In this document: positions 1 through 54,980 of the stretch, one piece after another
Layout: the number at the start of each line of letters is the position of its first letter
How positions within the stretch are numbered: position 1 is the first letter of the stretch
Origin: Verrucomicrobiia bacterium
GTDB taxonomy: Bacteria > Omnitrophota > Omnitrophia > Omnitrophales > Aquincolibacteriaceae
DNA length: 64,000 nucleotides
Direction of reading: 5' to 3'
Assembly (NCBI GenBank): GCA_035495615.1
Contig: DATJFP010000088.1
Coordinates: 41,763-105,762, forward strand
Program-made: the position numbers and the translations under genes
The notes under the pieces: generated by a model
Seen by the model: the letters and a program-made list of their open reading frames with translations, nothing else
Database searches by the model: none
Told to the model about the DNA's origin: nothing

Positions 1-300
1 AGGCGCGCGCGGCCGCGGAGCGCGCGGTTGATGTCGGTCTGCAGCGCGATCTCCCCTTCCCCGAGGGCTCGCAGGAACTGATACGCGTAGGCCATGACGA
101 TGGGATTGTTCTCGTCGACGGCCGCGGGAATCACCAGCTGCCCGCTGCGCAGGAGCGTCGAGATGTGGCGGGCATAAGCGCGGTAGATCGGGCCCGAGTC
201 GAAAAACTGATAGCCGAATTCCCTGGCCAGAGCCCGGGCGGCTGTCGATTTACCGGCCTGCGCGGGACCCGCGATATTGATGCCTTCGGGCGTTTCCAGA
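1..300 (-). other. Cytidylate-kinase-like P-loop NTP-binding module, truncated by the window edge
   Basis: Direct translation: ETPEGINIAGPAQAGKSTAARALAREFGYQFFDSGPIYRAYARHISTLL. Compare Cmk: ItIDGPxGAGKxTxxkxlAxxLgxxxLDSGAiYRxxA. The frame is still open at coordinate 3. Confidence 0.6.
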
Positions 301-3300
301 ATCTGGACCCACTGGTCGAGCGCGGCGTCGCGCTTTTCCTTCGGCAGGAGCTGGAGGAACGCGTTCACTTCGGCGGGCAGGTTCTGCGGCTGGACGCGCA
401 TTTCGGCGCGGCCATAGCGTTCGGCCTTGCGGGAAAGGCGCCAGATCTCCGGCGTTACCGCGCCCGGAGCCAGGTCGCCGATCCGCACCTGGATCGCGCG
501 CGACAGGCGCTGAAGAACGCCGGAATCGGTGTGAAAAACGTATTCGGCGCGGGTGAGCAGCTGCCCGAGGCCTTCCAGCGTCACTTCGCGGAGGTTCAGG
601 GCCTCGGCCGGCATCACCGCGAAATCGCCCAGGCCGTTGTCCGCGGCCCAGCGCAGGTAATTCGCATAAACCGAGAGTTCTTCTTCGGAGGTCTTCGGCG
701 GATCGCGTTTGACGATCCTGGCCAGATCGGCGAGCAGTTCCTGGCGCCGGGCTTCGGCGCTTTGCGGGCCGTGCTGCAGGTTGCGCACCAGCGCGTCTTC
801 GCGGCGGAGCCCGAGGCCGGGCACCACGTCGCGGCGCGAACGTTCGTTCAAGCGTCTCATGCTGCGTTCGATCTCGGGATTGGCCGCGGCGCCTTCCAGG
901 ACTTCGGCGGCGGAAACGCGAGCGATCAAGTGGCCGTCGGCGGATTCCTTGGTGGACGGAAGTCCCGGCACGTTCAAAAGCCCATCGTGCAGGTCTTCGA
1001 TGGCGAACGCCGTGCGCGGCGACTGGACCACGAAAGCGCTGAAATTCACCGAAGCCATGCCCGCGGCCGCGATCGCCTCGACATGCGGCCGCAGTCCGGC
1101 GACATATTCAGGATCGCGGTATTCGATATCCCGAATCACGCCCGCGACCGAGGCGATGTTCTCCGCCAGCGGGCCGCGCGTCTTGTAAATCTCATAGATG
1201 TTGGTCAGGCTGGCCATCGAAGGAAGCGTGACCACCCTTGCGTAATCTTCCGGATTGATCTGCTCGATCAGGCGCCGCATCTGGCGGAGCAGAAGGCGCC
1301 GTTCGGTCGAGGCGCGGCGAAGGGCGATCGAGGCCGTGGACTGCGCGGCTTCGCCCTTGGCGCGTCCCTGCGCTTCCTGGGCGTCCCGGAAAGCTTCTCT
1401 CGCGCGTTCGAGGCGCGGCAGGAGCCCGCGGATCGCGATCTGCGTGGTCATCAGTTTGAGGTGCAGCGAAAGCCGGTCAAGATAGTAAGCCAGGTCGTCG
1501 TCGGAAACCGTATTCTCGAGAAGCGCCTCGGTAACGGAACCGCGCAGCCCGAGCGCGGGCCGGTTTTCCAGCTGAAGCACGAGGCCGGACTGCGTCAGCG
1601 CGTAAAGGATCGCGCGCTGGAACGGCAGGAACGCGGCTTCGGCCTGCTCCTGTCCGAGCTTGGTAGTTTTCATGGTCCATTCGCGTCCGCGCGCGTCCGT
1701 GAAATGCGGGAACAGCGCCAGCACGTCCGGCGTATCCGCGGGCGGGATGCGCGTGATGTTTTTCTGCCAGTACCGCACGAACGACGAGGCGTCGAGCATT
1801 TCCGGAACCTGGTTGCTCGAGGTGTAGCTCACCGCGGCCGCGCCCACCGCCTGCTCGAACAGCTTGACCGTGTCGCGGCCGTAAGCGGCCGAGCGCAGGA
1901 ACGCCATGCCGCGGCGCAGCTCGTCGCCGACCGCGCGCACGACGCGCTGGTAAAGTTCGGGGCCGCGGCGCACGGCGCGCATGAGCGCGATCACGTTTTC
2001 GATGTTGTAGTAGCGGCCGCCCGGCGCTTCCGCGTCTTCGGTCGTGCCCAAAAGCTCCGCGCCCGGCTTGCCGTTCAGCCAATCCGAGTACACGCGGCGG
2101 AAGTCGTCGAGATCGATCTGCTTGATTTCGTAGATGAAACGTTCGACCTGGAAGCGGTAGCGGTCGTCCGCAAGTTCGGCTTCCAGCACGCGGTCGATCG
2201 CGGCCTCGCCGGCATTGACGATGAATTCCGCGAGCGTGATCAGGGAACTCGCCAGGCGCACGTCCGAGCCCGTGATAATCACTTCGTTGTGGCGGAAGAG
2301 GAAGGTGTTGAATTGCTGGCGCTGCTTGGCGGTCATGCCTTGGTAAAGGCGGTCGAGGATCGCGGGGTCCGCCTGCGTGATCGTGATCGGCCCGGGCGCT
2401 TCCGCGGTGCGGGACAAGTCTTCCGCGCGGCGCGAGATGCTGTTGGCGATCAGAAGCTCGCGCAGGTAAGAGCCGAGAAGCTTGGGTTCGCTCGCGCGCC
2501 GGATCTGGTTGGTCCTGCCGTCATAGTCCGTCTTATGGCCCAGGTTGACTTCGCTGTACGGGAAGTGCAGGTGGTACACCATACCTTCGATCGCGGTGCG
2601 GAGAAGCGCGTTCGGATCGAACGTGGTTTGTTCGGGCTGCGCGGTTTCCGAGACTTCGTCGAACACGATCCGCTCAGGCGGCGTCAGGCCTTCCTCTTCG
2701 AACCAGCGCCTCACGTCGTCTTCGGTGAGCGGGCCGGCAACAGGAGCGGCCGGAGCGGGAGCGCCTTCGGCCGCCGGCGTCGCCGGAGCCGGAGCCGCGG
2801 GAACGGGCCCGCGCGTTTTCGACCACTGGAACTGGCTTTCGCCTTTGTACGGGGCGGTCTTGGACGCCACGAGAAATTCTTCGACTTTGGCCGCGCCGCG
2901 TGTCTTGCTGAGCATGAGGGCTTTCAGGAAGCCGGTGATGATACCGCCGGAAACGCTGTCCACGAAGCGGATGTCGGTCTTGGGATCGATGCCCGCGGCC
3001 AGGACTTCCGCATAAATGCCCTCGGCGATCCGGTTGAATTCCGGATCCGTGCGCATGCGTTCTTCGAAATACGGCAGCAGCGCGTCGTAGAAGCGGCGTT
3101 CGCGCACCGCGGCGTCCGCCGTGCCCGCCCGATTCTCGCGTTCCTCGTCCTCGCGGAAGAGGCCGCGCACTTCGCCCACCATGCGTTCCATGACCGGGTA
3201 CGCGTTGCCGAGCTTTTCACGCGACACCTGGATGAGGACGTTTTTCGACTCGTCGAATTCCGCGCCCTGCATCATCTGCTTCGTGATCCAATAGTTTGCG

Positions 3301-6300
3301 CCGTCGCGGGCGAGATAAACATTGACCTTCTTGTCGTCGATCTGATCCACGACGTAAGGCAGCAGGCGGTTGATCGCCACCAGGGCGTGGTAGAAGGTGT
3401 ACTTGCCCCTGTTCGCCGGGTCATAGGCCTCGCGGATCGCGTTCTTCAGGTAAGAGATCCTGGAATCCAGCAGGTAGCGGCGGACGTCTTCGGAAGCGCC
3501 GGTCCCCGCGATTTGAGCTTTGAGCTCCGCGGCTTTCTCATCGAGCTTTTTCAGGATTTCGTTTGCATCGTAGGCTTGAACTTCAGCGGTGGGCTTGTAA
3601 AAGGCATTGAGGCGCATTTCGGGACGCAGGACGGGGCCGGACAAATCGATCTCCTGCGCCGGAGGCCCGCGGCGCGTGAATCTCTTGGCCGCGGCCTGGT
3701 TCACGAACGCGGCATTGGCGCGGCGCAGCGTGCGGTAGTTGTCGAACTGTTCTTCCTGGCTGCTCGGCGCGTGCACGCCGTTGGCGGCCGCGAACGTGGC
3801 GCGGTCCGGCGACTGCCAGGAACGGCCGAGGTCGAGCGTCTTTCTCATACTGCCGGAAATCAGCGCGCGATAGATCAGGCTGCGGAGCGAACCGTACTGC
3901 GTGCCGTACGCCTTTTCGGTCGACGCGGGGCCGACGACGATGGTGCTCAGGAATTCCTGCATGCCCACGGCGTTGTAATCGCGGCCGCCGAGCAGCGCTC
4001 TCGCCTGCTCGTCGGACAGGCCGTAATCTCTCACGATCTGAGCGCGCGTGACGCCGGGTTTCAGCTGCAGCGCGACGGGCTGCAGGCCTTCGTTCAGGTA
4101 GTTCCACAGGAATGCGAGCGCGCGCAGGCGCGGGTCGTCGGGATATCTCGGGCCGGCTTCGCCTGCCGGGCGGTTCGTGGCATGGAGCGTTTCGGTCAGC
4201 CACTCGTAGAACGCGGGGCCGTTACGCTCGTCGATCGCTTCGATCGCGGGCTCGACCGGGATGCCGGTGCCGCGCAGCATTTCGGTGCGAAGGCGCAGTC
4301 CCGAATTGCCCCAGATCGCCATGACGTCGTTCTGGAATTCGGGGCTTGGATTTTCCCTGTCCGTGTGGCCGGTCACGCGTCCGGCAATGATGTCGAAATG
4401 CAGTTCCACCTGGTCGAGGACCTGTTTGCGCACGGGCCAGGGCAAATCGCCTTTCAGGACGAGAAGCAGCGGCAGCGTCGACGGGGCTTCGGTCTTGAGG
4501 GGCTTGGGAGCCGGAGCCGGCACGGTTCCCCGCGTCTTGTCGCCCTTGGTGCCATCGGCCCAGCGCACGCCGTTGCGGTTGTCCAGCGTCTTGACCTGTT
4601 TGAGCGAGGTGGACGCCAGGCCCCGCAGCGTCGGGAAATCCTGGTCCGTACGGAAAGCGGCGCCCACGGAAATCGTGAACTCCGGCATGTTCTGCAGCGG
4701 CTCGGCGCGCAGGTATCTTCCCTGCACCTTGAGTTCCCTGTTCCAGTCTTCCAGCTTGCGGGCGAGCGCGGCCGCGAGCGGCACGTTCTTGCCTTTGTCG
4801 AAAACGATGAGCGCGCGGCCGCGGTTGACCGCGATCGGATAACCCACGGTGGTCTTGATCAAGTCACGCGTCTTGTCGTCGAGCGAGCGGAAATCCTGCG
4901 CGCTCTCGGCAAGGCCGAAACGGCCGTGCGTGCCGAACGAAATTTCGGCGCGCAGCCTTTCGAGGAAACGGGCGGCAAGCGCCTTGTCGAGCGGCCGGTC
5001 ATTCGTGCCGGTGATCAGCAGCCAGGATTCGTCGGGGCCGCGGCGGATCTGGCGGGCCGCGAGCTTGGGACCGTCCGCGTCGCGGAAAACATCTTCTTTC
5101 AGGATGTCGTCGATCGCGCGGTTCATGACGATGCGCACCATGCCGGCGAACTTGTACGTGCGGCCTTCGAAGGCCGTGTGGTACTGCGTGAGGAAGTCGA
5201 TGTCGACGGTGGCCAGCGCGAACTGTGTGTTCTGCTCGATCAGCTGCCCGATGAGGCGTTCGCCGTCGCGCTGCCCCATGGCCGCTTCGGAAGTCGTCAT
5301 GATCGGCGTATCGTCGCTGATTTCGGTGGCGGTTCTCCAGGTCTCGCGCTGTTCCAGCTTCGTGGCATCCAGGAAATAAACCGGGGGCAATTCGGAATAA
5401 CGGCGGTTGCCGGCCGCGTCCCACAAGCCCAGCGTATCGTAGTTTTCCTGCCCGCGGACGAGAATCATTTCGGAGTTGAGGAAGGCATCGGCCACGTCGC
5501 CCGCGATACCGCGGTCCCCGTCGTGGCGCTCGGTGCCGGAAATGTTGCGGAGATCGAGGCCGTAAGTGGCCGGGCCGTGATCGGACAGCACGAAGCGGCC
5601 TTCCAGCTTGTGGCGGCGCAGGTGCGCGAGCGCCGGATGTTCGAGAGCGGTCTCGATGTCGCGGACCGTGAGGGCGCGGCCCACGGGCACGGCTTTGGCC
5701 ACGCCGAAAATCGTCAGGCCCTGGTTGTCGTCGAGCCATTTCTGCACCGCGAGGAGGTCCTGCACGCCTTTAGGATCGCGCGGGTTCACGTTTCCGAAAA
5801 CAAAAGTCGCCTTGGCGAAGCTTGAAAGCTGCGGAATCGCCGTGATCGCCGGAGCCGGCGCGTCCAGCACCGCGGTGATCGCCTGCGCCTGCGCGTTCGC
5901 GGCTTCGTCATGTCCGGCTTCTTTGAGCGCCATTTCCACGATGCGGTTGTGCAGCGTCACGTATTCCGGAGCGCTGAGCGTGGTGCGGAATTCACGGCCG
6001 CCCAGGAAAGGCGGCTTCCACTGGCGCACGCGGGCGGCAAAATCTTTCACGTAAGTGCGCGTCGCTTCGTTCTGGATGCCGCGCGCGTCCAGAGCCGCGT
6101 CGAGGAAATCGTCCATTCTCGCGTCGGCGGTGACAAAATCCGTGATCGGCGCGCCGGGACGATAGTCTCCGGGCACCTGCGTCAGAAGCATCTGGGTCCT
6201 GTTTCCGGGTTCGTAATGCGGGGCGTCCACGCTCTCGACTTTGTCCAGGTTGCCGAGGAAAAGATCCATCATGTCCAGCACGACTTCGGCCAGGGTGCGG

Positions 6301-9300
6301 TCGCGCGTGACCACTTGCTGCCCGCCGCCCGTCGCGGCCTGAGGAGCGCCGTAACCTCCGGCGGCCTGAACGCCGTATCCGCCCGCCGCAGCCGGGGCCC
6401 CGCCTTCCGCCTGGGGCGCGCCGTATCCGGGCGCGGCAGCCTGGCCGCCTGCCTGGGGCTGTGCCCCTGCGGCGGCATAACCGCCCACAGGCGCGCCTTC
6501 TATCGGCTCGGACGTGGCCGCTCCGTAACCGGGAGTGGCGGCCGCGGCTCTCGCGGCCCCCGCCCTGACTTCCCTCTCTATAATAGGAAGGAAGCCCAGC
6601 CTGGAAACTTCATCCGCCAGGTCCAGCGTCGCCTGGTAAGCGACCGCGTCGAGGGACCGGATCTCGCCCAAGTTGGCATTCGGTTCTTTTTCGCGCAGCA
6701 GCTGGATCGCGCGCACGCCGCGCTTGATCTGATCCAGGTTGATCTGGCTGTTGGCCAGGAAACGGCGCGCGCCGTACTTGTCCAAAAGCCGGTCCGCGGC
6801 TTCGAACGATTCGGCGTAAAGATAAAGGTCTTCCACCAGGTGCCGGAGGCCGGCCGCGGGCTTGGCGCCTTCGAAGAAGGTCTTGAGTTTGCGCCCGCCC
6901 CTGCCGAGGTCGCCTTCGATCTCGAAATCAAATTGCAGCATGAAGCGCAGGATTCTGAGCGCCAGGCGCGGGTTCAGGTCCGCATGGCCCGCATCCGGAT
7001 AATTGACCCGCAGGACGCCTTCGCGGAGATCTTCGCGGCCCGAGAAGCTGTCGTGGATAATGTAGTCGCTTCCTTCTTTCCACAGCGCAAGACGGTTGAT
7101 GGTCAGTTCCGGCACTTCGGTAAGGGCCCCGACGTTGGGCGGCGTTTCATGGACGCGGCCCGTCGTGGCGTCGATGACGCCCGTCACGTGGATGGGCAGC
7201 CGGCGCCCGTCCGTGTGGACCATGACCGCGCGGCCTTCGAGCACTTCCTGCGCGGTGAGGTCCTGCGAAATCGTGCCGTCGAGCGCGCGGCCCTTGAATT
7301 TCTGGGCCAGGACGCCTGCCGCGGGCATGGCCGCGTCAAACAGCAGCCGCTCGCGGAACTGGTTGATGAGGTAAGCGCGGAAGGCCAGCATCACGATCTT
7401 GTCCGCGTCTTCGCGCGTCAGCGGGCTCTTCGCCTGACGCTGGGATTCGTAGACGTCGCGGATCTGCCGGCGCAGCTTGAGATTGAAGGCCGGGTCCGAG
7501 GCCTTGGCCGCTTCATAGGCTTCTTTGTAACGCTTGTAGTCCGGATACTCTTCCAGGATTTTTTCGTACAGGCGCTGCTGGTCTTCCTTGATCTCGACGT
7601 GATTGGCGTGCTTGATCTCGCCGATGAGCTTGGCATCCTGCGGAAGTTCTTTCAGCCAGGCCAGCTCCGTCTCGCGGGCATTGAGCCGGGCGACGGCTGC
7701 GTCGTCGAGGCGGACCTGGAGCAGCACGTCGACTTCGTCGCTGCGCTTTTCCTGCCCTCCGAGCTCGTTACGCACGATGCCGCCGAACGCCACGACCGCG
7801 GGATTGTTGACCCCGTCGAGGAACGCGCGGAGCGCCCCGTTCTGCGTGAGCTGGTTCGGGGCCAGAGTCTCGCGAAGCTCCGCCCTTTGCTGCACGGCCG
7901 TCACGGCCGCGGCCAGCCGCGGGTTGTTCAATTCGGGCGCGTCACGGAGAAGCGGAACCACGTGATGGCGGACGAAAATGCCGAGTTCCCGGAGCGCGAC
8001 CGGCTTGAACCGGCGCGCGCCGCTGAGGGCATCTTCCACGACCGTAAGCGCCGCGTTTGCGAAATAAGCGTCGCCCACGGCGGCGCGGACGTCGTTGATG
8101 CTTTGCACCGGCGCGTCTGGAATAATTTCCGTGCTGAGGCTCGAGAAAGGCGTGAGGCCGCTTTCGATCCGCGACACCACATCGCGGAACGCTTCCCGAT
8201 CTTGGAGCGGCTTCAGCGCCCGCGTCAGCCTCTCGCTTCCGAGCTCCGGGCGGCTCTGGATCAGTTTTTTCAGATGTTTCACGATGAAGCTCAGCTTCGC
8301 GTCTGGAAGATTGTGGAGCCGCGGCTCTTCGAGCATGAGCTGCACCGTCTGCATAAAGGCCAGGTCGCCCATGTCCTTGCGGAAATCATCCACGAATTTC
8401 CAGGCCGCGTCATACTCAAAGTCAGGATAAAAGGAGCGGTCCCGGATGCCGTCCGCCAGCTTTTTCGCGGCCGCGGCAAGATGCGTGTCCGGCGTTTCGG
8501 CCGTGAGCTCGGCCGGCACGGGCTTGTCCGCGAGATCGGGACGCCGCGCAAGCAAGGGACGCAGGTGTTCTTCTTCGAGCCTCTGGTACAGCACGGGAGC
8601 AAAGCTCTTGACCCGGTCTTCGAGAATGGCGTCCAGCGCGCCGCGGAAATAAGCGTCGCCGGCAAGGATGGCGGCCAGCGCGGCGTGATAGGTTTCGTCG
8701 CCCAGGTCTTTTCCGACGGCCTCGATGCGTTCTCTGCGGACCTCCGGGCCCAAGTCCCCCGGCGCACCAAAGCCGGTGCCGGCCACCGCGTCGAAGATCC
8801 GCGTGATCGCGCGTTCGAGCGGCGTCTTGCCGTAGCGCGAGCCTTCTTCGTAGACGCGGCGGAAATTCGTGACGGCGTTGTCAAGCCTGTCGTTCAGCAG
8901 CATGGGCCGGCGGGTAAGCATGCGGCGAACATGGAGATTAAGCAATTCAGCCACGATGCGCGGCGGCAGATCGTAGTGGCCGGCTTCTTCCACGATCGCG
9001 ATTACGGCTTCGCGGAAGAGCACGTCTTTGGCCTCGCGGCGGACGCTCTCGATCATTTGTTCGCGCATCAAGTCACGGTCCTGGGCTGCCTGCACCGCGA
9101 TCAGGATTTTGCGCACCGTCGCATAAACCGGCGGCAGTTCGGGCGCCGCGGGCGCTTTTTCCGGAACCTTTTCGAGTTTCGACGCGGCCGGGACCTTCTT
9201 CACGAAACCCTCGTAAAACCGCTGGAACGTCTCGGGGAACTTCTCGCCTTTTCCGAAATTGCGCAGCAGGCCTCCGATGATCGGAACGCCCGCGTATTCT

Positions 9301-12300
9301 TCGCTCTTATGGAAGAGCTGGTCGAAGCCGTCGGTCATGTACGTGCCCAGGTCCGTGTCCGGGCCGATGAGGCCGCGGTCGAACTGGAAGATGGCCTTGA
9401 TCTCGGCCGGCTTGTGCTTGGGAGAGGTTTCGAACCGCACACGGACGGTCTTGGCATCCACCTGCGCGACCGTGACCTTGTAGCCGGGATAATTTTTCCA
9501 GGCGTAGACAACTGGCTCTTCGAGCTTCACTTCCACGGGAATGATCTCGTCACGGGACGGCACCACTGACGGCGCCGCGTGCGCTTCCACTTCAGGCACT
9601 TCTTCTTCGGCGGCAACGCCCACGAGATACGTGCGCAGCGTCGTTCCCAGGATTTGGCCGCGCTGGGCTTCATCCGCGACAAAAGGCGCGAGCGACCAGA
9701 CTTTCGTGCTGCTCCTGCGGATGCCGATGAGTGCGGCCGCGCGGCGGGCGGTATCGCCGGCGGCAAGGCCGCGGCGGCTCGCGATTTCCGTGACCAAGGC
9801 TTCGCGTCCGTTGAGCCCGGCCCTTTCGAGGGCTTTCAGCTTTTCGGCAAAATCCGCGGCGGTCGCCGGTTCGGTCTGTTCTTTCAGGAGCGCGGCCAGG
9901 ACCTCGTCCACTTCCTTGAGAAGCGCGTCCGCCGCTTCCGGTGTGGGAGGCACTTCCGCGAGCGCGGCGATGAGAAGATCCACATTGTCCACGTAGCGCC
10001 GGGTGCCCGGATTGAAATAGCTGCCAAAGAAATCGTCGCGGAGCACCGCGGGATCGTGCACGCGCAGTTCCGTGCGCGCGAAACTCCATTCGCGGCGCGT
10101 CTCGTCTTCCTCGTCGCCGAATTCGCGCGCGGTGTCCATGGCGTCGATGACTTCGTGCACGGCGCCGACCGCGTCGGCGTCCAGGCCCGGCGTTTCTTCG
10201 ACTTCCGGCAGCGCTTCCGGCGTGAGGCCGGTGGTCGCGGGCGCGTAACGGCGGGCGGCCCAGCGGATAGCCTTTGCAGACAGGACAAAAAGAAGCACGG
10301 TCAGCGTGCCCGCCACCATCATGGTATGGAACGCCATGAAGTACCACGGGAAGCGGACTTCGTTGGAAAAGGCAAAGCCGGGCGGCGGCAGCGCGGTCAC
10401 CATGCCGTCACCGATGGAAATCGCGGATCCCACCGGGCTCATCGCGAACGGCGGGATGCCATAGATAAGGAAGACGACGGTCAGGCCCATGGTGATAAGG
10501 CCCATGGCGATGCTGACGCCTTTGGTCCAGGATTTATTTTTCCACAGGATGCCCGAGAACCAGGATGCGAGAGGGCCCATCATGAAGGCCACGCCGATCG
10601 GGAAGAACCACAGGAACCAGTGATAGTCGAGAAGCAGCGGCAGGATCGGCCCGAGAGCGCCGACCGCGGCAATGCGGAAGGCGGTCGTGACCGACCACCA
10701 GAGCAGCCTTCCCCGCTCGCGGGAAATGTCGCGGCGGATCAGGTCCGCGCGGCCCGGCGTCAGGCGCAGGGCTTCGTCGTAGGTTTCGCGGATGCCGCGC
10801 GTCACGAAGAAATTGTCCGCCAGTCCTCTCAGGCTAATGGGGATGGTAAAAAAGTACAAGTTGATCCGGAAATCAATGAGCCTGAAAAATCCGCGTAAGA
10901 GGTCCACCGCCCACATGAGGTGCATGGCCCGCAAGACAGGCTCCGGCCCGTACCATTCCATGAGCGCGCGCATCACCACGAAAACAATGCCGACCCCGAG
11001 GCCGATGAACCATCCGAACGGCAGGACCGTGGAGAAAAACGCGGCCATGCCCACTTTGGCGACGATCCATTGCGAGACGCCCGGAATGGCGCCGATCATC
11101 AGGATGCCGAGCATGGCGTGAAGGACGAGGCGGTACCAGCCGGTCCGCGCCGCCTGCCGGACTTTCGTGTCGCGCTCGATCATCGTCTCCGCCTGTTTTT
11201 CGGGCGTGGTTTCTTTCGTGGGATCGATCTCGTGGCGGAAATAGCGCGCGCCCCAGAAGCCGGTCAGGATCGCGGAAAGAATGCCCGTCAGCAGCGCGGC
11301 GCCGAAGACCGCGAGCGCGCCGAAGCCGAGGAGGAAATGCCCGATGAGGAAGACCGAGAAGAGACCCAGGCCGAACGCGAACGAGGTGCCGAACTCTTCG
11401 AAGTAATGCGCGAGCGGCAGTTCCGGCGATTCCGTGCCCGTCGATTTCCAGACCGGCTTGGCCTGCGCGGCCAGCATTTCGAAACGCACGGCGTTGGCGT
11501 GGTCGCCGCGGATGCGGGCCAGGCGCGCCTGCTGCTTGTAATGGGACACGAGCGTATAGTTGGCATAGAACTGGCGGAAGCCTTCGGCATTCGCGTCTTC
11601 GGTGAGGAACAACTTGTTCAGATAAATCAGCGTGGACATCACGGTCTCGGCCACTTCGATGGGCACGTCCGTGAAAAGGTAATTGCGCCATTCGCGGAAC
11701 ATCACGGTCGAGACGACGAGTACTGCGAGCGCCGGCAGGAAGACGGCCGGCGTGATGGGCAGAAGCCCGATCGCGAGCGGGATTGCGACGAACGCGCGCC
11801 ACACGTGTTTCGGGATGCCGAAGGTCCTATCGCGGATGCCCAGGTAAATCAGGATGAGCGTCGCGACAACGCCCAGGATCGGCGCGGTCCACAGGAGCGC
11901 GGTGAGCGACAGCCCCATAAACGGCACGAAGGCAAGGAGAATGGGCACGGCGAGCGCCAGGTATCTCAAGAACCCGGGCAGCCGGAACGTCCTCAGGAAC
12001 GGGAGCCGCACCGTGATCGGCCGCGGGCCGTTGCGCACCGCCCAGAAGAAGATGGCGGCGCCGAAGAACAGGGCGAAAAACAGAAGCGGCAGCGTGACTG
12101 AAGCAAAGATGCCGAGCGTCAGCGTAGCCGCGCTCAGGAATTTAAATCCGACGATGAGCGCGGCGATCATGCCGCCGATCGAGAACATGATGCCGAGCCC
12201 GTTGTAGAGGCTGCCATAGCGGCGGTCGAAAATCCGGTCCGCTTCCGAACGCATCTCTTCCTGGTCCTGCAGCCGGATATGCGCCGGCGCGTCTTCGGCG

Positions 12301-15300
12301 TTCGCATCCACGAACTGGTTCATGAGGCGTTCCCAGAGCGGCGCGACAAATTTCGGCGCAATGAGCGTGATCATGACCTGGAGGAAGATCGTGACGGCGT
12401 AAAGGGCGTAGAAGACTTCGGAAACGCCCGGGATCATGACGCTGATGAAGCCGATGAAGAGCAGCCGCTTCCAGATCGGCTCGCCGATGATGCCGCGCAT
12501 GACGAGGTTGTTCGGGTAGCGCGAGTATTCACTCGTGTTCCAGTGGCCGAGGAAACGCAGCGCCACGTTCGTCACGTCGAAACGTTTCCAGATGCTGACT
12601 TCGCGTTTGTGTTCGTCCGGGAAGTGCGCGGGCGTGCCTTCGGTGATCGGAACGTCGGTGAGCAGCGTGGCCGCGACCGGCAGCATGACGTTGCGCTCGG
12701 TGTCGGGCTCGGCTTCGTAGATGTTCGCGGACGATTCTTTTTCGTCGTGCGATTCCCAGATTTCCGGGTCCGCGGGATAGTCTTTCATCATTTCCGGGAT
12801 GAGGCCGTCCATGACGTCGGAACGCATGCCGAATTTACCGAACGCGCGGCCGCGTCCTTCGGTCGCGAACAGGACCACCTGGAAGAAACGCAGGGTGGCC
12901 TGGGCCACGCCCTTCAGGAAGGTGTACTGCGCGTCGCCCCAGTTCGAGTACTCGATCCACGGCTGGTACATTTTGTACTTCGCGTTGTTTTCCGAGTGCG
13001 ACATCTTCTGCACCGTGCGCAGCGCCGTATCGCGCGGCCACACGTTGTCTTTGTCCGAGATCAGGTGGTTCTTGATGCTGTTGACCGGGTCGCCGATGTT
13101 CAGCGGATTGCCGCGGTATTCGCCGTAATAGAGCTGGCCGTGGGCATTGCGGCGGAAGTAATCGCGGCCGGTCATGTCCGGCCCCGTGTCGCCGTGCGTG
13201 AGGTAGCGGTTCAGGTTGTAATACGACCACGGCTTTCTCACCTGCGACTGGCGCGGGAACACGTAGAACTTGTCTTTGCCGAAATCGCGCCACAACTCGT
13301 AGGCCAGGCGCGCCGTGCGCTGCTCGCGCGGGTCGCTGAGCGCGAGGAGGCGCGACATGTCGCCGTTGGCCGCGGCCCAGCCCGCGTCCAGGATGCGCTG
13401 GATCTGCGGCCACTGGCCGTCGGAAGTACCGCCGTCGAAAATGACGCGCATGTTGTGAAGCGGGTCCGGATCGTCCGGGTCCGCGGTGTCGAGAATGCCC
13501 TGCATGCTCTTGCGCGCGCTGTCCATCACGATATCGAGTTCGGTGATGCGCGCGACGTAGGTGATCGCGCTCTGGTCGATTTCTTTTTTGCCGACTTCAG
13601 GCAGCCCGCGCTCCATGCTGCCGAACGAGAACATCCAGGTCACGAGGCTGAAGCCCAGCGTGATGATGATGCGCAGAAGATAGAAGGTCGCGATCACGGA
13701 AAAGAGGTTGGCGCCCAGGATCAGGTAGCCGGAGAAAATGCCGCCCTTGATCAGCGTCAGCGCCGTGTCGATGACGAGCGGGTTCTGGCTGAACATGTAA
13801 CCGAACACGTACCACAGCGTGCCGAAGAGAATGCCGGAATGGAAGAGCTGCCAGAGCGTGGCCTTGCCGAACTTGCCCACGGAGGCCGGGACGTGCAGCG
13901 TGAACAGGTGCCAGCCGAAAATCGAGATCCTTCTTTCCACGTTCGGGCCCGGAAAGTCGTTGGTCCTGCCCCAGATCGACTGCGGGACCAGCAGGTCGAT
14001 GAGCGCGCCGGTAAGCGTCGGGATAAATCCCGCGGAAACCATTTCGCCCGCGAGCAGGATCGCCAGGCCATACACGATGGCGGCCAGCGGCAGGAAGGCG
14101 GGCAGCAGGAGTTGAATGATCAGGACCGCGGCGCCCGTGATGCCGATGATCGAAAATTTCGCGACCTGCGGCCGGTAATCCGCGTCGATGACCGAAAGCA
14201 GCCGGTAGGCCAGGAAGGCCGCGGACAACAGGCCTCCGAGCAGAAGGACAGCCGGCACCAGGAATTGCGCGGCGAAATAACCGATGAGGCCCAGTGTGAG
14301 CCCGGTGAGCACGCCCATGACCGTAAGGCGCTTGCCGATGTTCGCGTACGGATTATTTTTGGCGGCTTCGCGCCAGGCCACGCCCACGCGGTAGAACGGC
14401 TTGCGCAGCGTGGAAAGGCTGAAGAGCTGCATCACAAAGCGCGCGAGCACAAGCCCCAGGATGACCAGCGCATGCGTGGCCAGTGTCCCCGGCTTGTTCA
14501 GGTCGTACAGGCTGCGGAAAAAGCCCCAGACGCCCGAACGTTCTTCTTCGGGCAGGAAGCGCTGCAGGCGGCGTTCGATCTCCTGCCGGTGCGCTTTGTT
14601 GACGCTGCGCTCGGCATACGTAATGAAAAGTTCTTCGGCGTCCGAACGCATTTCCTCGCCCGGAGGCAGGTCGCCGCGGGTCTCGCGCAGCACCTGCAGG
14701 ATACCCACCCTGCGGCGCACGTCGCCGCGGATGTCCATCAGCAGCAGGAGTTCGGTCTGCGTGAGCGCGGGAATCGAGTCGGGAACCGTCGTCGGATCGG
14801 TCGCCTGCTGGAAGTAACGGCCCGGATAAAGAATGTTGATCTGGGCCTGGGCGCTCACGATGCGCAGACGCTGGTGCGCTTCCATCACGTCATCGACAAG
14901 CAGCCGGATGTCGTTGGGCAGGAGTTCGCCGCGGCGGATTCTGTCGACCAGCGCGGCCACGATGGCCGGGTCGGTCAACGAGCGGCCGCCGAGCCAGTAG
15001 CGGGCGCGGCCGAGATTCTCGGTATCCAGCCGCGAAAGCTGCTGGCTGACGATGCGCGTGAGCTGCTGGGTCACCATTTCGTTCAGTTCGCGGTCGGTCA
15101 CGTAAGGAGTCACGGGCCGCTCGGCCAGACCAATCTTCAGCCACACGTCCGCGAGATAAAGCGCGTGATCGATCGGGAATTCGTACCAGTGCATGGCGAC
15201 AATGGGATCGCGGTTGAAGTCCGCGAGATCGGCGCGGGCCCGCTGAAGCAGGACGCCGCCGACCGTCGGATCGACGAGCGATACCGCGATGGCCTGGGTA

Positions 15301-18300
15301 ACGGCCGCTTCCCGCTTCGCGCGTTCCTGCCGGATGATGAAATCCGCGGGATTGCGCTCGAAATCCGTGACCGCCCTCTGGGCCGCTTCGAGCTGGGGAC
15401 GCAGCGATGCGTCCGCGGCCGCGAGCGGCGTGAGACGCGTGACTTCGGCCTGAAGGCGCGTGCGTTCGGCATTGATGACCTGGATCGGAACGGTTTGATG
15501 GTTGTCCCGCGCGATCTGCCGCAGCCGCTGCGTGCTGAGCTGCTGAATTTCGCGCGCCATCCTTACCCACGCCAGCAAATCCTCGAGCCTGACGCCGGCG
15601 TTGCGGGTATTGTCCGCCATCCGGTAGGCCTGGTCGTCGGTGACCGGATAGCCGGCTTCGTTGAGCGCGGTCTGGAGCTGACGCGCGCTGTCGAGCACGA
15701 TCTGCAGGTCCTGCACGTCGCGCAGGATGACCGCGTCCACGCTGAAACCCAGGCGGTTGACGACCTGCTGGCGCTGATCGGGATCGGTGAATCCCCACGT
15801 GTCGTAAAGGCGCTGCGAAAAAGCAGTGATGCGCGAGCGGTGATAAAGCGGCAGGCGTTCCCGCGGGTCGCGGGGCAGGTTATAGACCTGGCGGTAGATG
15901 CGCTCCACCTCGTTCTGGATGGTGACGTATTGCATCACGACGTCGTCGACGGAGCGGCCCTGTTCGATCATGACGTTCACGTAGTAGCTGACGTCGAATT
16001 GACCGAGCGAAGCCGGGTAGCCGCGGTCGCGGATGTCGGGGCGCTGCAGGTAGCGCTGGTACGATTCCTGGATCTTCTGGGCTAAGGTTTCCGGAGTCTC
16101 TCCCGCCGGAATGCGGCCGCGCAGCGCCGTGCGCTGGTCCGCGCGCAATGTCCAAAGGTCGCGGACGGCCTGCGTTTCGCGGTAGGTTCTGTTGCGCAGA
16201 ACCTCCGCCTCGCGCTGACGCTGCGGCATGCGCGCAATCAAGTCGAGGAGCGGCCCGTTGGTGGAAAGGCGCGGCTCAAGCAGCAGGTTGAAAATTTCCC
16301 CGCGGCCCGGACGGACGTACTGCGAGACTTCCTGGTCCGGGCCGAATTGCAGGTACACCTGGTGGCCGAATCCCGAGGCAAAGGTCTGGTCCGCCATGCT
16401 GAGACGCGCGATGAGTTCGCGCTGCGCGGCCTCGCGGTAGTTCGGCGACAGCGCCTGGAATCCGGGCATCCGCATGATGCGCGTCCAGGCCGCGGACACG
16501 CGGTCGGTCGTGGCCTGGTCCGGCACTTCATGGAAGATGTTGGCCCAGGTCCACAGCAGGCGGCGCTCCATGTTGCCCTGCGGCCCGAGGTCGCGGTAGC
16601 TGGAGTCGCCGCGCGCCACGACTTCGAAGAAGCGCCGCATCTGGAAAATCTGCACGGGGTTCATGGGCTCGCTGGCGGCCCTGCCCTCGCCTTCGCGGCG
16701 GAAACGCTGCACGGCCGAGCTGATGTTGAGCGCGTCGATGAAGACGTGCAGGTATTCGTAAGAAGCCTTCTGGATGTTGAGCACGTCCTGGAAATATTCG
16801 ACGATCCACTGGCGGTCGCGGCCGAGCTCGTGCATGCGCACGACAAAACCGAGGCGCTGCCACGGGTCCATGACCGGGAACTGGTCGGCGGCCGCATCCC
16901 CGTAGGTGCGGCGGATTTCCTCGATGGCCAGCCTTTCCTGCTCCATGACGAAGCCGTCGTCGCGCAGGAGGCCGGCGATGATGTGGACGCTGGCTTCTTC
17001 GCTGTCGGAAACGATCCGGGAACGGACGAGCGTGATCCACGACGAGAGGTCGGCGAGTTCCAGGCGCTGGTGCACGCCGCCCTGGCGGTGATAGCGCATG
17101 TACACGGCCTGCAGCAGCATTTCCGTGCGGCCGCGGTCCATGAAGAACTGCCGCGCCTGGTCGATGTCCGCGAACTGGAATGGCTGGCCGGAAAGGCTGT
17201 AGCTGCGCATCTGGCCGCGCTGGTCGCGCAGGAACTGCGTGGCGAGCTGCACGGCGTCGCCGGGCAGCACCATTTGCTGGCTGAGACCTTCCCGAATGTC
17301 GCGGTCCGGATTGCCGAGGATCAGGTCGACCAGGCTGGGGTTTTCGGCGGAGCCTACCAGGTCGTCGTCGGTCACCCACGCCGGGCGCGGCGCGGTGCCG
17401 GCGCGCCAGGCCTGCAGCTCGGTGACCAGGCCGGGCCGCGTCGTGAAGCCGGAATCGTTCTGGGCCGAGAGGCGCCGGACGTTCTGGGCGAACTGGACGA
17501 GCTTGAAGAAATCCTCGATCGTGAAGCGGGTGCCGAGAAGCTGGGCGTAGGAGCGGTCCGTCCCCTCTTCGGGGATCTGATAAGTGCGGTAATAATAAAG
17601 GTAGAAGTACTTGACCTCACCGTCGGTCAGGCCGCCGTTGCCGCGTCCGGGCCAATGATCGCGCGCGGCGCTCTGGACGCGGAGAAGATCGGTCATGGTC
17701 TGCGTGATGTCCGCGGCCGGGAGGTCGATCCTGCGGTTGACTTCCTCGATCATGCGCACGCGGGAATCGAAAAGGCCCCACATGCGGCCGCGGTCGGCGG
17801 GGCTCATGGCGCGCAGCGCGGCGTCCGAAGCAAAAGGAGCGACCAGCGTGCCGAGGTTGATGCCCTGGTAATACTGCACCAGCTGCGGGCGCAGGTTGAA
17901 GATCATGTGCGCCAGATTGCGAGTATGCGCCGTGAACCGCTGCACGTCGGAAAGCGGCGCTCCCGTCGTCACGAAGTTCTCCTTGCGCGCTTCGATGGAC
18001 AGAAACGCGGTATAACCGATGAGGAAGTTCCAGCCGTCGTCCGAGCGGTAAAAGCTGTTCAGTCCCGTGATGGAAGCGCCGCGCGTGCGGGCCGCGGCCG
18101 CGTCGCCGGTATCGTTGAAGAGCTGCAGCTGCCCGACCGTGCGGTAGAAATCAAGGCGCGCGGACGGATTGGCGTCGATGGCGGGCAGGACGCGCAGGAC
18201 GTCGTCGACAATGCCGCTCGTCGCGCGCCAGCTCGCCTGGTAATCGACGAGATATTCCGTGCGGAACTGCACCCAGCCGAGCACCGCGCCGAGCGTGCGG

Positions 18301-21300
18301 GGATCGCTGGCAAAATTTTCACCGACCGTGAGCCGGTTGTCGCCGCGGCCTTCGAGGCGGAAATTCAGGAGCCGGTCGGCCTCGCGGAGAGCTTCGGCGC
18401 GGCGCGTCGGATCGCGGAACACCCACTGCAGCCGGGGAACGCGCAGGCGCACCTTTTCCATGTAACGCGTGAAGAGTTCGTCCCAATGCCGCTGGATCTG
18501 CGCGTTGTTCCAGCCCGGCTGGACGCGGGCTTCAAGCGCGGCGCCGGCAAGGAAACCGTTCAGGAGGCCGCTCGCCTGCTGGTCCGAGAAAAGACGGCGG
18601 TCGACGCGTCCGTCTTTGCCGATGTAACCGGTCAGGCGCGGCAGTTTGCCTTCGCCGAACGCGTCCGCGCCGAGAATCGCTTCATAGTACTGCTGGGCGT
18701 TGCGGAGCGCGGTGACGAGGCGGTCGTTGTTGGCGAGATAATAGTCGATCTGGCGCGTGCGCGATTCCGAAGCTTCCAGCGTCAGGGACGGCAGGCGCAG
18801 TTCAGGGCCGTCCGCGGTGGTCGGCGGAGGCGCGATCTGAGGCGCCCCTCCGAACGGCGCCCCTGCCCTCGCGGGCGGAGCGGCAACGACGCCGCGGACT
18901 TCGACGTCCGCGCCCGGCGGAATGCGGTTGGCCGTGCGCCAGGCGGAAAGCGCGTCGCGGTGCAGCATGGCGAAAGCGTCCAGCCGCGACCGTTCGCGCA
19001 AAAAGGCCATTTGCGATTCGCCCTGGCGGCCGATCAGGCCGTTCAGGCTCCTCAGGTGATTGGCCATCACGTACGTGCGTACGGCCGTGCCGCCGCCGTC
19101 CTGCGAATCAAAAGGCCCGTTGGGTCCCTGGCCCTGGAAATTGCGGATCCACGTGGCGACGGCTTCGGGATGCTGGCTCGCGAATGCCGCGACCGGCGTG
19201 ACGGTCAGATGGTCCATGCGCGGAGTGCCCGATTGCGAGCGGAACGCGCTGTTGCCCATGTTCGGATCGAAAGCGCCGAACGGACCGGAAACCGCGGACG
19301 GGCTGAAAACGCCAGGGCGCCCGTTCTGCCTTGCGTCGTCCATCATGGCGCGGAAATAATTGGCCTGCATTTCGCGGAATCCCGGAATGTTCATCTGCGC
19401 CCAGATCGGGGCGTTGTAGCTCATGCCGGACGCGCCGCCGGTGGATGTCGTCGCGACGCGCGCGGTCGAGCCTCCGGCGAAACGGTAATCCGAGGCCGTG
19501 AACGTGGGCGTCAGCCCCGTGAAAGCGCGCGAGTCGACGTCGAAGAGCGTCACGATGAGCGCGATGTCGGCGGAATCTTCGGCGAAAAGATCGGTGCGGA
19601 GATTCTCGCTCAGCGTGACGCGCTGAAGGTCCGCGCGCGGCATGAACGTCACGCGCGCCGAAGTGTGGAACAGGTGCCGGTCGCCGTTCAGCATGGCGCG
19701 GTAGCCTTCCCGCTGGGCGTTGATCGCCGCGATCGCCTGGTCGCGCAGGTCGGTCAATTCGCGCGGGATTTCTTCGCCCGCGGCGCGCAGGCGGGCGATT
19801 TCGCGGATCAGACTGCCGGCATAGCGCGCGAGCGACGCGGTGAGGTGGGCATTGTCGACGAACGAGATGTCGCCGCTTTGCGGGCGCGGGTCCGCGCGGT
19901 CGAGGTGAAGCCCGGGGATCAGCCCGTTCCAGCTCGACTGCGGGTTGCCCTGCAGGCGGACAAGCGTTTGCAAAATGAGCCGGGATTGCGCGGCCGCACG
20001 GGCGCGGTCTTCGGGCGCCACGCGGCTGTTCACGTCGCGCGCCTGGACGTGGCCGTAATATTCGAGAAGCGCGCCGATTTCGGTGGGCTGCGTGGTCTGA
20101 CGCGGCGCGGTCTGGTCCGGGCCGTAAACTGAATACGGGAAACCGGTCCTGGGATCGATGACCATGGAGCGGTCGCCGCTGCGGGCATCGAGGACGTCGT
20201 CGAACTGATCCACCAGTCGCTGCACGTCCGCGGCATCGGGAGCCGGTCCAGCCGGGCCTGCGGGTCCCGCGGGCCCCGTGTCCGTATCCATCTGTCCAAA
20301 GATCAACAAGACTAAAGGAAGCGCCATCATGCCGGCCGAGCCTGCATCCTGCACCGGCGGGCGGAGCGGCGCGAGAATCGGCGCGGCCCTGACGCCTGTC
20401 ATGGGATCCACGTCCACCTGGCGGGCGAGTTCGTGAATCGCGGCGGTCGTCAGTTCCGGCGGCATTTCCCGGCCGGAGTTGAGCACGCCGCGGAGCGCGA
20501 CGACTGAGGGTTTGATCGTGGAAACGTCTTCGCCGTTTTCTTCCATGCGGTCCGTGGCATGGGAGACGTTGCCCATCATGACGAGCGATTGGGCCCTGCC
20601 GAAATCGCGCAGGCGGTCTTCCGGCGCGCGCGCGTTGCGGGCCTGCGCCAGAACGCGTTCGGCGGCGTCCCGGTCTGCCCCCGCGTCCAGACGGTCGACG
20701 CTCGCGCTCATGGACTGATAAACCTGGATTTCCTTCGAGCTCCATCCGGACCGCGAGAGGTCGCCGACTTCGGTATGCACGCCGACGACGCCGAGAACAG
20801 TCGCGCTGAAGCGCATCACCGAGTCCGCCACCGTGATTCCGGTTTTGTCCTGAGCCCAGCCCAGGATGTCATGGCCGACGTTGATCGCGTGATGCTCGAC
20901 GAACGTGACGGGCGAAGCAACGGCGTTGGTGACGTCGACGTTATCGCCGCGGATCTGCGTGAAGACCCAGGAAGTGCCCTTGCCGATGTATTGCGCGAGG
21001 CCGTAATCGTGGACATTGCCCTGGGCGTCGGGATGACCGCCGGCCAGCACCGCGATTTCCGCGCCGACCGTCAGCATCATGCCGAAGGTACGGATGAATT
21101 GCAGCCAGAACTTTCCGGATGACAGGGTCCGGAACAAGCCAATGGCAGGCGCGTACGCGAAGCGCTGTGCGAGCGTCGGAATGATTACGGTCGGAGGCGC
21201 GCGGGGCGCGGCAGGCGGCACCGCCTCGACGGGCCGAGGTTCGTCGGCCATGCCGAGCAGCGCGCGAAGAACGCGCATTTCCGAGTCCACGCTGTAACGG

Positions 21301-48530: not shown

Positions 48531-48704
48531 GAGGATTTGCCGTCCCTATGTTTTGCTGGCCAAATTGACGTGCTAACTTACCGACTACTTAAAAAATTGA
48601 TTTATATTGTTATATTTAAACTATATATCAAAGTTTTTAAACTCACAATAGTATAGACCGAAATAATTGTAAGTTAAATACTTGATAAAAGTTTTTATGA
48701 AGTA

Positions 48705-48733
48705 AGTATAGCCGCCACTTTCTAAATTGTCAA
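48705..48733 (-). promoter_or_regulatory. Candidate sigma70-type promoter for the giant gene
   Basis: The minus strand reads TTGACA (48733-48728), then a 17-nt spacer, then TATACT (48710-48705). It sits in a ~265-bp AT-rich intergenic region, about 175 nt upstream of ATG 48530. Confidence 0.4.
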
Positions 48734-48779
48734 TCGGAACTTTAGGCAGAAAGGGAGTTTAGCCTGGTTTTAAGGAAAG

Positions 48780-48795
48780 CCCCTACAATAAGGGG
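48780..48795 (-). terminator. Short hairpin directly after the stop of the response-regulator gene; weak intrinsic-terminator candidate
   Basis: The minus strand reads AAA-CCCCT-TATTGT-AGGGG-CTTTCCTTAAAA. The stem is 5 bp, the loop 6 nt, and the U-tract is poor. Confidence 0.3.
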
Positions 48796-48796
48796 T

Positions 48797-49228
48797 TTAT
48801 TCTTCGGGATCGTCTTCCGGGGTCTTCTTCGGGGCGAGGTTATCTTCGATGCATTTGACCAGGTCCTTGGTACTGACCGGCTTAGAAAGGGCAGGTTTAA
48901 TGGTAAACGGCCGCCCCCCTACCACTCCGCCGAAGGCTTCGCTTTGCCCCTTGCCCACGGTAGCGGTAAGAAAAACGATGGGGGTGTTATTGATCTTTTC
49001 CGTTTCTCGGATTTCGATGGCCACCTCCGTACCACGCTTGTCCGGCATAATCACGTCCAGAAGAATGAGGTCGGGTTTGAAGTCTTTGGCCGCCTGCAGC
49101 CCCTGGGCGCCTTTGGTCTCCACGCGGACCTCGAACTTTCCGAGGGCTTCCAGGTTTTTTTTGATCATGCTTGCGAATTTTTCTTCATCGTCGATAACAA
49201 GGATTTTTTTCTTTGCCGGGTCTGCCAT
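48797..49228 (-). CDS. Single-domain response regulator (CheY-like receiver)
   Basis: 143 aa. KILVIDDEE...PDLILLDVIMPDKRG...PIVFLTA...IKP gives a canonical acidic pocket, phospho-acceptor Asp, Thr and Lys. AGGAGG lies 4 nt upstream of the ATG. Confidence 0.9.
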   Translation of the reverse strand: MADPAKKKILVIDDEEKFASMIKKNLEALGKFEVRVETKGAQGLQAAKDFKPDLILLDVIMPDKRGTEVAIEIRETEKINNTPIVFLTATVGKGQSEAFGGVVGGRPFTIKPALSKPVSTKDLVKCIEDNLAPKKTPEDDPEE

Positions 49229-49239
49229 GATTCCTCCTG

Positions 49240-50802: not shown

Positions 50803-50877
50803 GACGACACACCGGTCTTCGGGAATAAACCAGATTCAGGAAGGAAATGTTGGGGCGCGGGACGTAGGAAGCGAGGA

Positions 50878-51243
50878 TTACTCTTCCCCAAGATTGCTTC
50901 GCACTTTTTTTAGCAGGTCTTCCGGGCGGTAGGGCTTCACCATGTAGTCCTTGACGCCTTCGAGCTCGAACAGGTCTTTCATCTTATCCTTGGCAGTCAG
51001 GACAATCACGGGAGTCGCCTTGATGGCCTCATTGCGCTTGAGCGTCCTTACGAAAGTGTAGCCGTCCATCTTGGGCATGAGAACATCGACGATGATGAGA
51101 TCGGGATGTTCTTTTTGGACTTGCAGGAGGCCTTCTTCCCCGTCATGAGCCGTCACTACCTGATAGGAACACGCCACCAAACGGTTCTTCAGCAGTTCCA
51201 CGATGTGGGGGTCGTCGTCAATGACTAGGATTTTTTTTGACAT
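50878..51243 (-). CDS. Single-domain response regulator (CheY-like receiver)
   Basis: 121 aa. [15 protein letters not shown]...[16 protein letters not shown]...PVIVLTAK...DYMVKP. Confidence 0.95.
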
Positions 51244-51326
51244 TCATCCTCAATGCCTTCGCCGGGAGAGGGCCCGATGTCGGCCCCTAAAATATCGGCC
51301 TCTCTCCAGGGAAAATTAAGCGAAGA

Positions 51327-51402: not shown

Positions 51403-51411
51403 ATTGAATTT

Positions 51412-52257: not shown

Positions 52258-52267
52258 GCCGCTGCTT

Positions 52268-54073: not shown

Positions 54074-54116
54074 CGGACCTCCGGAAGATACTGTTGCTGG
54101 CCGCGGACTGGCGGGG

Positions 54117-54818: not shown

Positions 54819-54980
54819 ATTTCCCCTTTCGAGCCTATTCCCCGCGTCATGAAACGGGGGCCGCAGATGTTGCTAAAAGTTATCGGCCTTTTATCTTAAG
54901 GATTAAGAGCTGTGCACTCAAATACTAGCATGGAAACTTAAATTTGTCATCCAACCATCAAAAAGGAGCCAAAACTATCA

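Follow-up and report, generated by a model that had tools for sequence, protein, structure and literature searches.

A divergent class II nucleotidyltransferase-like domain, interrupted by a helical insertion, within a bacterial giant membrane protein

We describe a domain encoded on the minus strand, at positions 6567..7841, of a 64,000-nucleotide stretch of contig DATJFP010000088.1 (positions 41,763 to 105,762 of the forward strand; hereafter ‘the window’), from a bacterial assembly assigned to the Omnitrophota (GCA_035495615.1). The domain is 425 amino acids (aa) long, corresponding to residues 13,569–13,993 of its reading frame when counted from base 48545, and has as its C-terminal border a low-complexity linker rich in PGYG, Ala and Gln. 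On comparison of family profiles it is very probably a genuine, though very divergent, homologue of the catalytic head-and-neck of class II nucleotidyltransferases (NTases); it would thereby represent a polymerase-beta-fold unit of the PolyA_pol/CCA-adding type, split by a helical insertion of ~140 residues, and one part of a multi-domain module in the C-terminal region of a cysteine-free, membrane-anchored giant protein. Going further, and with distinctly less assurance, we favour its interpretation as a repurposed, putative transferase that probably still binds metal and nucleoside triphosphate (NTP), and that does not act on tRNA.

An earlier note on this DNA, made from the sequence without database searches, had proposed a CCA-adding/poly(A)-polymerase-like module on the strength of short motifs. 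The peptides that it quoted do exist, all in one stop-free frame and all on the minus strand (a detail left unstated): FGGIVRNELGG (7787..7755), DEVDV (7739..7725), LTINRLAL (7106..7083) and, as third motif, DLNPRLALRILRF (6980..6942). The check put forward at the time, an hmmscan against the Pfam PolyA_pol family, proved negative for the window sequence, and sub-threshold scores were seen for just three relatives (P0002, P0003 and P0004; 19–21.5 bits, under the gathering threshold of 23 bits for PF01743); hence the case for homology rests on family profiles. In these relatives the best PolyA_pol stretch corresponds to model positions 3–40 (P0003 and P0004) or 96–125 (P0002), a split coverage that is compatible with a head domain interrupted by an insertion. 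Pfam scans with an 800-aa region, with the domain after deletion of the insertion, and with its C-terminal half alone also returned no match.

At the level of single sequences, a phmmer comparison of the window segment with the sequences of the PDB placed class II enzymes in all of the top six positions, led by that of Thermotoga maritima (3h37; E = 1.4e-3), with poly(A) polymerase and CCA-adding enzymes next in rank; the aligned span runs from ELTINRLAL to LRILRF, with the GG motif also matched collinearly, albeit below threshold. The signal strengthens with a profile built from the window sequence and five relatives (A1; P0001–P0005, six sequences in total), which gives E-values of 1.5e-7 for 3h37, ~2e-5 for the A-adding enzyme of Aquifex and 4e-5 for a CCA-adding enzyme. 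Ten of the 11 PDB matches to this profile are class II enzymes (CCA-adding, A-adding or poly(A) polymerase); the sole other, a class IV aminotransferase, ranks tenth with E = 0.7.

Profile–profile comparison extends the match across the whole of the catalytic head. With hhalign, A1 aligned to a set of five canonical heads (Escherichia coli Cca and PcnB, from loci L002/L003, P0007, and two domains of P0006) over 205 columns, from motif A through to the neck, at a probability of 97.4%; nine family sequences gave 97.3%, and removal of the insertion columns raised the probability to 98.6% (E = 9.3e-16, 191 columns) and the score to 108.8, from 85–86 before. As controls, a reversed alignment scored 22.6 (2%) and 20 column shuffles scored 9–19 (<=0.7%). 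What emerges is profile-level homology to characterised members, collinear over motifs A, B and C and the motif-D helix, in support of the module first proposed. These controls also bear on the alternative that three short motifs have arisen by chance in a compositionally biased giant open reading frame (ORF), with no homology to NTases at all. The lack of a Pfam match for the window sequence would fit such a view, as would the modest E = 0.23 obtained when an N-terminal NTase profile alone was compared with PDB sequences; that very profile, however, again ranks a CCA-adding enzyme first, with motif A as the aligned site, and, taken with the collinear score of 108.8 against 9–23 for reversed or shuffled columns and the PDB E-value of 1.5e-7, we consider a chance resemblance to be effectively refuted by the sequence comparisons.

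Could a large protein simply have acquired, by fusion, an authentic tRNA CCA-adding enzyme or poly(A) polymerase? The best database matches of the domain are indeed CCA-adding and A-adding enzymes and PcnB, and the only NCBIfam models listed for the window segment are those for CCA NTase, PcnB and CCA repair. The scores, however, are just 18.8 (for CCA NTase), 14.1 and 13.8 bits, set against equivalog cut-offs of 290 bits (CCA NTase) and 702 bits (PcnB), such that equivalog membership fails by a wide margin; in addition, Pfam provides no match, and both the EDxxR template and the RRD motif of the canonical enzymes are missing (see below). We therefore regard this alternative as highly improbable.

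Working from the N-terminus of the domain, and using published definitions of the canonical motifs (PMC2910056, PMC8563995, PMC11784652), motif A is found at 7728..7787 (minus strand) as F19-G20-G21-I-V-R24-N...E36-V-D38, comprising a GG turn and a metal-carboxylate pair in the form E-x-D. In E. coli Cca the catalytic pair is DxD, formed by D21 and D23 (PMC11784652); E36 and D38 align on these two residues, as well as on the D-I-D of 3h37 and 9kma. HMMER and hhalign both place a two-residue insertion after GGxVRN(x)6, which leaves E36-V-D38 as the pair and the leading Asp of ‘D-E-V-D’ outside it. The suggestion that the carboxylate motif is altered was thus correct in so far as the pair differs from DxD, and mistaken in reading it as D-E-x-D. 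Among eight family sequences F19, G20, G21, R24 and D38 are invariant and position 36 is only ever D or E, the site reading DEVD, EEFD (in four cases), DEID, QELD or EDFD; i.e. [E/D]-x-D throughout, with Glu as the first carboxylate in seven of the eight and a canonical D-x-D (D-F-D) in L009. The GG turn and two carboxylates that identify motif A are accordingly all present, the Glu being a conservative variant.

Beyond motif A and the insertion, a beta-3/beta-4 hairpin (7146..7241, minus strand) carries H218 (7188..7190) and, six residues downstream, D224 (7170..7172), the latter lying within G-V-[ILV]-D and invariant in all eight sequences; D224 may correspond to the acidic position of BxA, or it may be a carboxylate that has moved. 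The flexible loop of canonical enzymes is replaced in the family by a well-conserved G-R-x-Y-x-T-P-x-N-x-G-A-F segment. A motif-B-like element follows (7083..7118, minus strand; E242-V-P-E245-L-T-I-N-R250-L-A-L), in which ELTINRLA is aligned by both HMMER and hhalign on the class II D(F/L)TINA(M/L)A with its T-I-N core retained; here E242 and R250 are invariant.

The motif-C-like element (7014..7067, minus strand; D259-Y-I-I-H-D264-S-F-S-G-R-E-D271-L-R-E-G-V) aligns on the canonical ‘iiDpygG..DL..g’, with D264 and D271 both invariant and matched to their canonical counterparts. Next comes the motif-D helix (6933..6980, minus strand; D288-L-N-P-R-L-A-L-R296-I-L-R299-F300-M-L-Q303), whose R296, R299, F300 and Q303 are invariant, so that the conserved Asp residues of motif C and an LRxxRF helix are both in place. 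The likeness to ‘DPLRxLRAxRF’ that had originally drawn attention to this segment holds for the structural LRxxRF helix, which is kept, and fails for the base-templating EDxxR residues, which are not; the family's own D(x)3R in motif D is also not invariant. The remainder of the domain (6567..6932, minus strand) resembles the helical neck/body, the hhalign alignment reaching residue ~208–213 of E. coli Cca and helices being predicted at a predicted local distance difference test score (pLDDT) of 37–72. Overall the family has 22 invariant columns, and nine of its ten invariant charged or polar residues sit at NTase motif positions. Conservation is highest in the core (residues 201–303; 29–51% identity to relatives), compared with 13–28% in the insertion and 15–29% in the neck/body.

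The spacing of these motifs is unusual. From the GG motif to the motif-D position we count 268 residues, versus 123 and 138 in the E. coli enzymes Cca and PcnB, respectively, so that the extra length, of about 130–145 residues, is real; the long insertion remarked upon in the earlier note is thereby borne out. It occupies residues 60–200 (7242..7664, minus strand; ~140 aa), where it separates helix alpha-B from strand beta-3. Each of the seven relatives whose sequence extends across the region has it, P0005 ending inside it, with a length that varies from shortest in L009 to longest in L007. AlphaFold2 (AF2) predicts it to be all-helical (block-mean pLDDT 56–93); compared on its own with PDB sequences, the insertion produced no credible match. 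A single-sequence AF2 prediction of the domain was uninformative (pLDDT 38), whereas the model made with the A1 alignment displays, in order, a strand, the GG turn, a helix, the DxD strand, helix alpha-B, the all-helical block at ~60–200 and the beta-hairpin. Much of the list from a Foldseek search with this model consists of class II enzymes, but no match falls under E = 0.1. The predicted structure may be said to agree with the sequence evidence for an NTase fold, in a manner that is consistent but weak.

If the domain is indeed a class II head-and-neck, what might it still do? The metal-binding pair would be retained as [E/D]-x-D with invariant or conserved D224, E242, E245, R250, D264 and D271 around it, whilst the residues that confer specificity for ribonucleotides (RRD), for CTP and ATP (EDxxR) and for the tRNA 3' end (BxA) would be lost. 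Such a domain would still bind a divalent metal and an NTP, transferring or at least handling a nucleotidyl group; since residues for the ribose, for CTP/ATP and for the tRNA 3' end appear to be gone, nucleotide choice and acceptor would both differ from those of tRNA CCA addition or RNA polyadenylation. Judged from the conservation of these residues, retention of metal or NTP binding, or of catalysis, is somewhat probable, and the activity itself putative.

Several results weigh against this reading. At the position expected for the canonical third carboxylate (beta-4; E57 in E. coli Cca) the eight family sequences have H/H/H/Q/Q/Q/S/S (position 218), the hhalign register around the site being approximate and uncertain by ~2 residues. 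Motif B of canonical enzymes uses RRD for ribose recognition (PMC2910056); the equivalent position is [VT]-P-[E/D] in the family (V-P-E in the window, V-D in L007), with both arginines lost and only the acidic residue, E245, staying as D or E. Likewise, EDxxR serves as an amino-acid template for CTP and ATP, its Asp and Arg tolerating no substitution in the human enzyme (PMC11784652), and is absent from the family, where the Asp position holds N, S, T or G and the Arg position L, M, V or I. Added to this, hmmscan of the window segment against Pfam gives no match even at E <= 10; the AF2 model made with A1 is mediocre (mean pLDDT 65, predicted template modelling score 0.59), and weakest (pLDDT 33–43) across residues 265–331, a span that takes in some of motif C together with the motif-D helix and the beginning of the neck; and the family sample is small, at eight or nine sequences.

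These losses, which lend substance to the early suspicion that the module is repurposed or inactive, are equally those expected of a dead pseudo-nucleotidyltransferase, one in which the fold is kept for nucleotide or RNA binding, for regulation or for structure, with no nucleotidyl transfer. We see this as the main rival, favoured by the apparently missing third carboxylate (H, Q or S) and in keeping with the failure to conserve RRD, BxA and EDxxR, with a large insertion that breaks the head domain, and with a domain in L005 that is frameshifted within that insertion. Against it, [E/D]-x-D is retained in eight of eight sequences at an overall identity of ~30%, and the interchange of E and D at its first position suggests that what is selected is the carboxylate and not the packing; several other acidic residues, too, never vary, and nowhere in the domain is conservation higher than in the core. 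On this evidence a pseudoenzyme is a possibility to be taken seriously, and one we think unlikely. Our preferred interpretation, a repurposed domain that would still engage metal and NTP, makes use of the same losses; together with the insertion, the loss of the ribose and base-template motifs suggests a substrate other than the 3' end of tRNA or RNA.

The family to which the domain belongs is very rare. Searched exhaustively with HMMER, 1.84 billion representative proteins yielded seven matches, made up of the five relatives P0001–P0005 and two canonical class II enzymes; the scarcity of the family, with just five relatives among that many cluster representatives, accounts for the lack of a curated model for it. 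Ordinary searches for homologous proteins, using the single sequence, A1 or A2 as query, gave only a fragment (P0008), look-up of which led to locus L005. Whilst a metagenome scan with the NTase motifs found nothing, one with a conserved downstream motif (A4) found four loci (L006–L009), and hmmsearch with the A1 profile then located the NTase-like domain in L007 (E = 9e-89), L009 and L005. The tally is five representative proteins and three metagenome loci, in every case within large or giant proteins: P0002 and P0004 are ~2,500 aa long, and L007 is a single open frame of 6,717 aa that spans its whole 20-kb locus. The product of L001, a contig from a Candidatus Omnitrophota metagenome-assembled genome (MAG), has exactly the sequence of P0003. 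In L005 the domain is divided over two called genes (2118..3290 and 3238..13290) by the frameshift within its helical insertion, a result of either sequencing error or pseudogenisation of this copy.

The host of the domain in the window is itself exceptional. The minus-strand frame 48545..3 is free of stops over 16,181 codons and leaves the window at its left end; the gene (3..48530, minus strand) is incomplete there and encodes at least 16,176 aa from the ATG at 48530, the likely start, which has an AT-rich intergenic region upstream and a hydrophobic, signal-anchor-like helix right after it. Besides this N-terminal helix a Kyte-Doolittle scan picks out ~20 more, mostly within aa 11,353–12,760, which define a polytopic transmembrane block (10266..14489, minus strand) upstream of the NTase-like domain; the description of the host as a giant membrane protein is therefore well founded. 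The block shares 34–49% identity with its equivalent in L007, and 47% with that in P0005. There is not a single cysteine codon (TGT/TGC) among the 16,181, where ~95 would be expected at the rate of 0.58% Cys seen in 15 flanking ORFs; relatives are similarly depleted, having two in 6,717 residues (L007), two in 4,409 (L008), three in 2,508 (P0002) and two in 2,551 (P0004).

The first 13,568 residues of the giant protein have no significant match to Pfam or to PDB sequences, and a search of the protein for internal repeats found none. The sole other hint of a domain within its first 13,500 residues is a weak, below cut-off match to a PP2C-type phosphatase (PF13672, E = 1.9e-3) at 33888..34130 on the minus strand. 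A weak match to 1,3-beta-glucan synthase (PF02364), with an ‘ATGRGP’ motif, occurs at residues 45–167 of L001/P0003, in the membrane region upstream of the NTase-like domain; we reject any such link for the transmembrane block of the window, which has no detectable counterpart.

Long ORFs are also called along the plus strand opposite the giant gene (165..5825, 5910..9569, 9579..10898, 12279..16085, 16347..20132 and others). Since each of these stops exactly at one of the only 21 TTA/CTA/TCA codons in the giant gene, we reject the chain as an artefact, its members being codon-register antisense shadows and not genes.

Within the giant protein, the domain belongs to a conserved module. Residues 13,557–15,967 are collinear with nearly all of P0002, at 32% identity over 2,222 aa, and residues 10,661–16,139 with the 6,717-aa open frame of L007. 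The order is: transmembrane block, a spacer of ~650 residues found in the window only, the NTase-like domain, the PGYG-rich linker, an ARMT1/DUF89-like domain and a GGDEF-like domain, followed by long, unannotated, conserved stretches and then, at the edge of the window, the P-loop of a CMP kinase. The spacer (7884..9827, minus strand; aa 12,906–13,554), located between the transmembrane block and the NTase-like domain, is absent from the closest relatives, L007 and P0005, in which the NTase-like domain comes directly after the membrane block. Everything downstream of the domain (3..6566, minus strand) is collinear with P0002, P0004, L006, L007, L008 and L009, and always follows the NTase-like domain.

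The linker (6312..6566, minus strand; …APGYGAPQAEGG…) is of low complexity, made up of Pro, Gly, Tyr, Ala and Gln, and comes directly after the NTase-like domain in every relative. In L009 it has expanded into repeats of AKAGGYGAKAPAAQAA, and the necks of P0004, L005 and L009 contain a comparable stretch. The ARMT1/DUF89-like domain (5430..5762, minus strand; a damage-control phosphatase) matches Pfam at E = 1e-9 in P0002 and at 1.6e-3 in the window, and the degenerate GGDEF-like domain (~4647..5234, minus strand), which has an R-R-G-P-D-E-S signature and a conserved D-I-D, matches a diguanylate cyclase from the PDB at profile level with E = 1e-3. Both are weak in the window, yet are conserved in the module of all relatives.

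The cytidylate (CMP) kinase P-loop, ‘INIAGPAQAGKSTAARALA’ (168..281, minus strand; Pfam E = 1.5e-8, NCBIfam cmk E = 6.4e-9), is cut by the end of the window, a point beyond which the relatives continue for >2,000 aa. About 100 residues past the window end, L007 and L009 have a GRG...FL...LR segment that may be the rest of a CMP-kinase domain; the identification of a downstream ‘LLVLKGG...NGIHSAGT’ segment as nucleoside-diphosphate-kinase-like was unsupported. Given the nucleotide-handling domains that neighbour the NTase-like domain, a nucleotide-related role for the module as a whole is plausible.

The giant gene is set apart from its surroundings in composition, having a GC content of 0.61–0.67 (0.79 at third codon positions, GC3) in all but its first ~1.5 kb, compared with 0.50–0.56 in the flank; the shift is sharp at the gene boundary (1..48600 versus 48600..64000), with the neighbouring histidine kinase at a GC3 of 0.65, and stems either from bias in the codons and amino acids used by the giant gene or from a foreign origin. 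Upstream, at 48797..64000, the minus strand encodes ordinary genes: two single-domain response regulators, a PAS histidine kinase, an alpha/beta hydrolase, a FadD-like acyl-CoA ligase, a cNMP-binding patatin-like phospholipase, a GH1 beta-glucosidase and an RlpA-like protein; a tRNA-Ala(CGC) also lies within this region (51327..51402). Exact copies of the neighbouring histidine kinase were found only on short metagenome contigs (JGI 3300045391, JGI 3300033412 and SRR9009773).

Compared with known systems, the domain is closest to the class II tRNA NTases and PcnB (PF01743; 3h37, the Aquifex A-adding enzyme 4wby/1vfg, E. coli Cca and PcnB), with which it shares the same order of elements at a profile–profile probability of 97–99%: first a strand, the G-G turn and a helix with a conserved Arg, then the carboxylate strand, motif B with its T-I-N strand, motif C with its D..G..DL spring and, lastly, the LRxxRF helix and a helical neck. 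It differs from them in its E-x-D, reached after a two-residue insertion, in the ~140-residue insertion after alpha-B, in H/Q/S at the third-carboxylate position, in V-P-E for RRD, in a conserved segment where they have a variable flexible loop, and in the lack of EDxxR; its Pfam and NCBIfam scores fall below their cut-offs and its host is a membrane-anchored giant protein, as opposed to a soluble enzyme of ~400 aa. The combined signature of motif B, motif C and the D helix belongs to class II alone. For other polymerase-beta-fold NTases (terminal uridylyltransferases, or TUTases; CD-NTases such as CdnE; MenT toxins; and aminoglycoside/lincosamide NTases) we found no sequence-level signal; there was also no match to PADLOC defence models.

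As for the host, the nearest comparison is with the giant proteins described for Candidatus Omnitrophota (West-Roberts et al. 2023, bioRxiv 10.1101/2023.11.21.568195; a 2026 preprint, 10.64898/2026.06.07.730766), 137 of 916 long proteins in the latter study being without any domain match. The protein in the window resembles these in its length of >10,000 aa, its transmembrane segments and its largely unannotated sequence, and one relative that bears the NTase-like domain (P0003, the product of L001) comes from a contig of an Omnitrophota MAG. Unlike the Omnitrophota giants, it has no detected SecA-DEAD, dockerin or tandem-repeat architecture; neither of the two preprints mentions nucleotidyltransferase, PolyA_pol, DUF89, cytidylate kinase, GGDEF or cysteine.

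Bacterial giant proteins of >10,000 aa are almost wholly unannotated, and in this one the NTase-like domain is among the few parts that can be recognised; a fold of 425 residues with a conserved carboxylate pair offers a clonable entry point to function. The family also illustrates the extent to which a class II scaffold can diverge with its carboxylates kept, having adopted Glu-x-Asp, accepted an insertion into the head, and lost both its ribose and base-template motifs. As a more speculative extension, we tentatively suggest an undescribed and extremely rare class-II-like clade that would have abandoned tRNA-type recognition and been built, along with DUF89-like, GGDEF-like and CMP-kinase-like domains, into a membrane-tethered nucleotide-processing assembly, one that might make a nucleotide-derived signal or nucleotidylate a non-RNA acceptor. 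If true, this would provide a first enzymatic handle on a ‘dark’ class of bacterial giant proteins.

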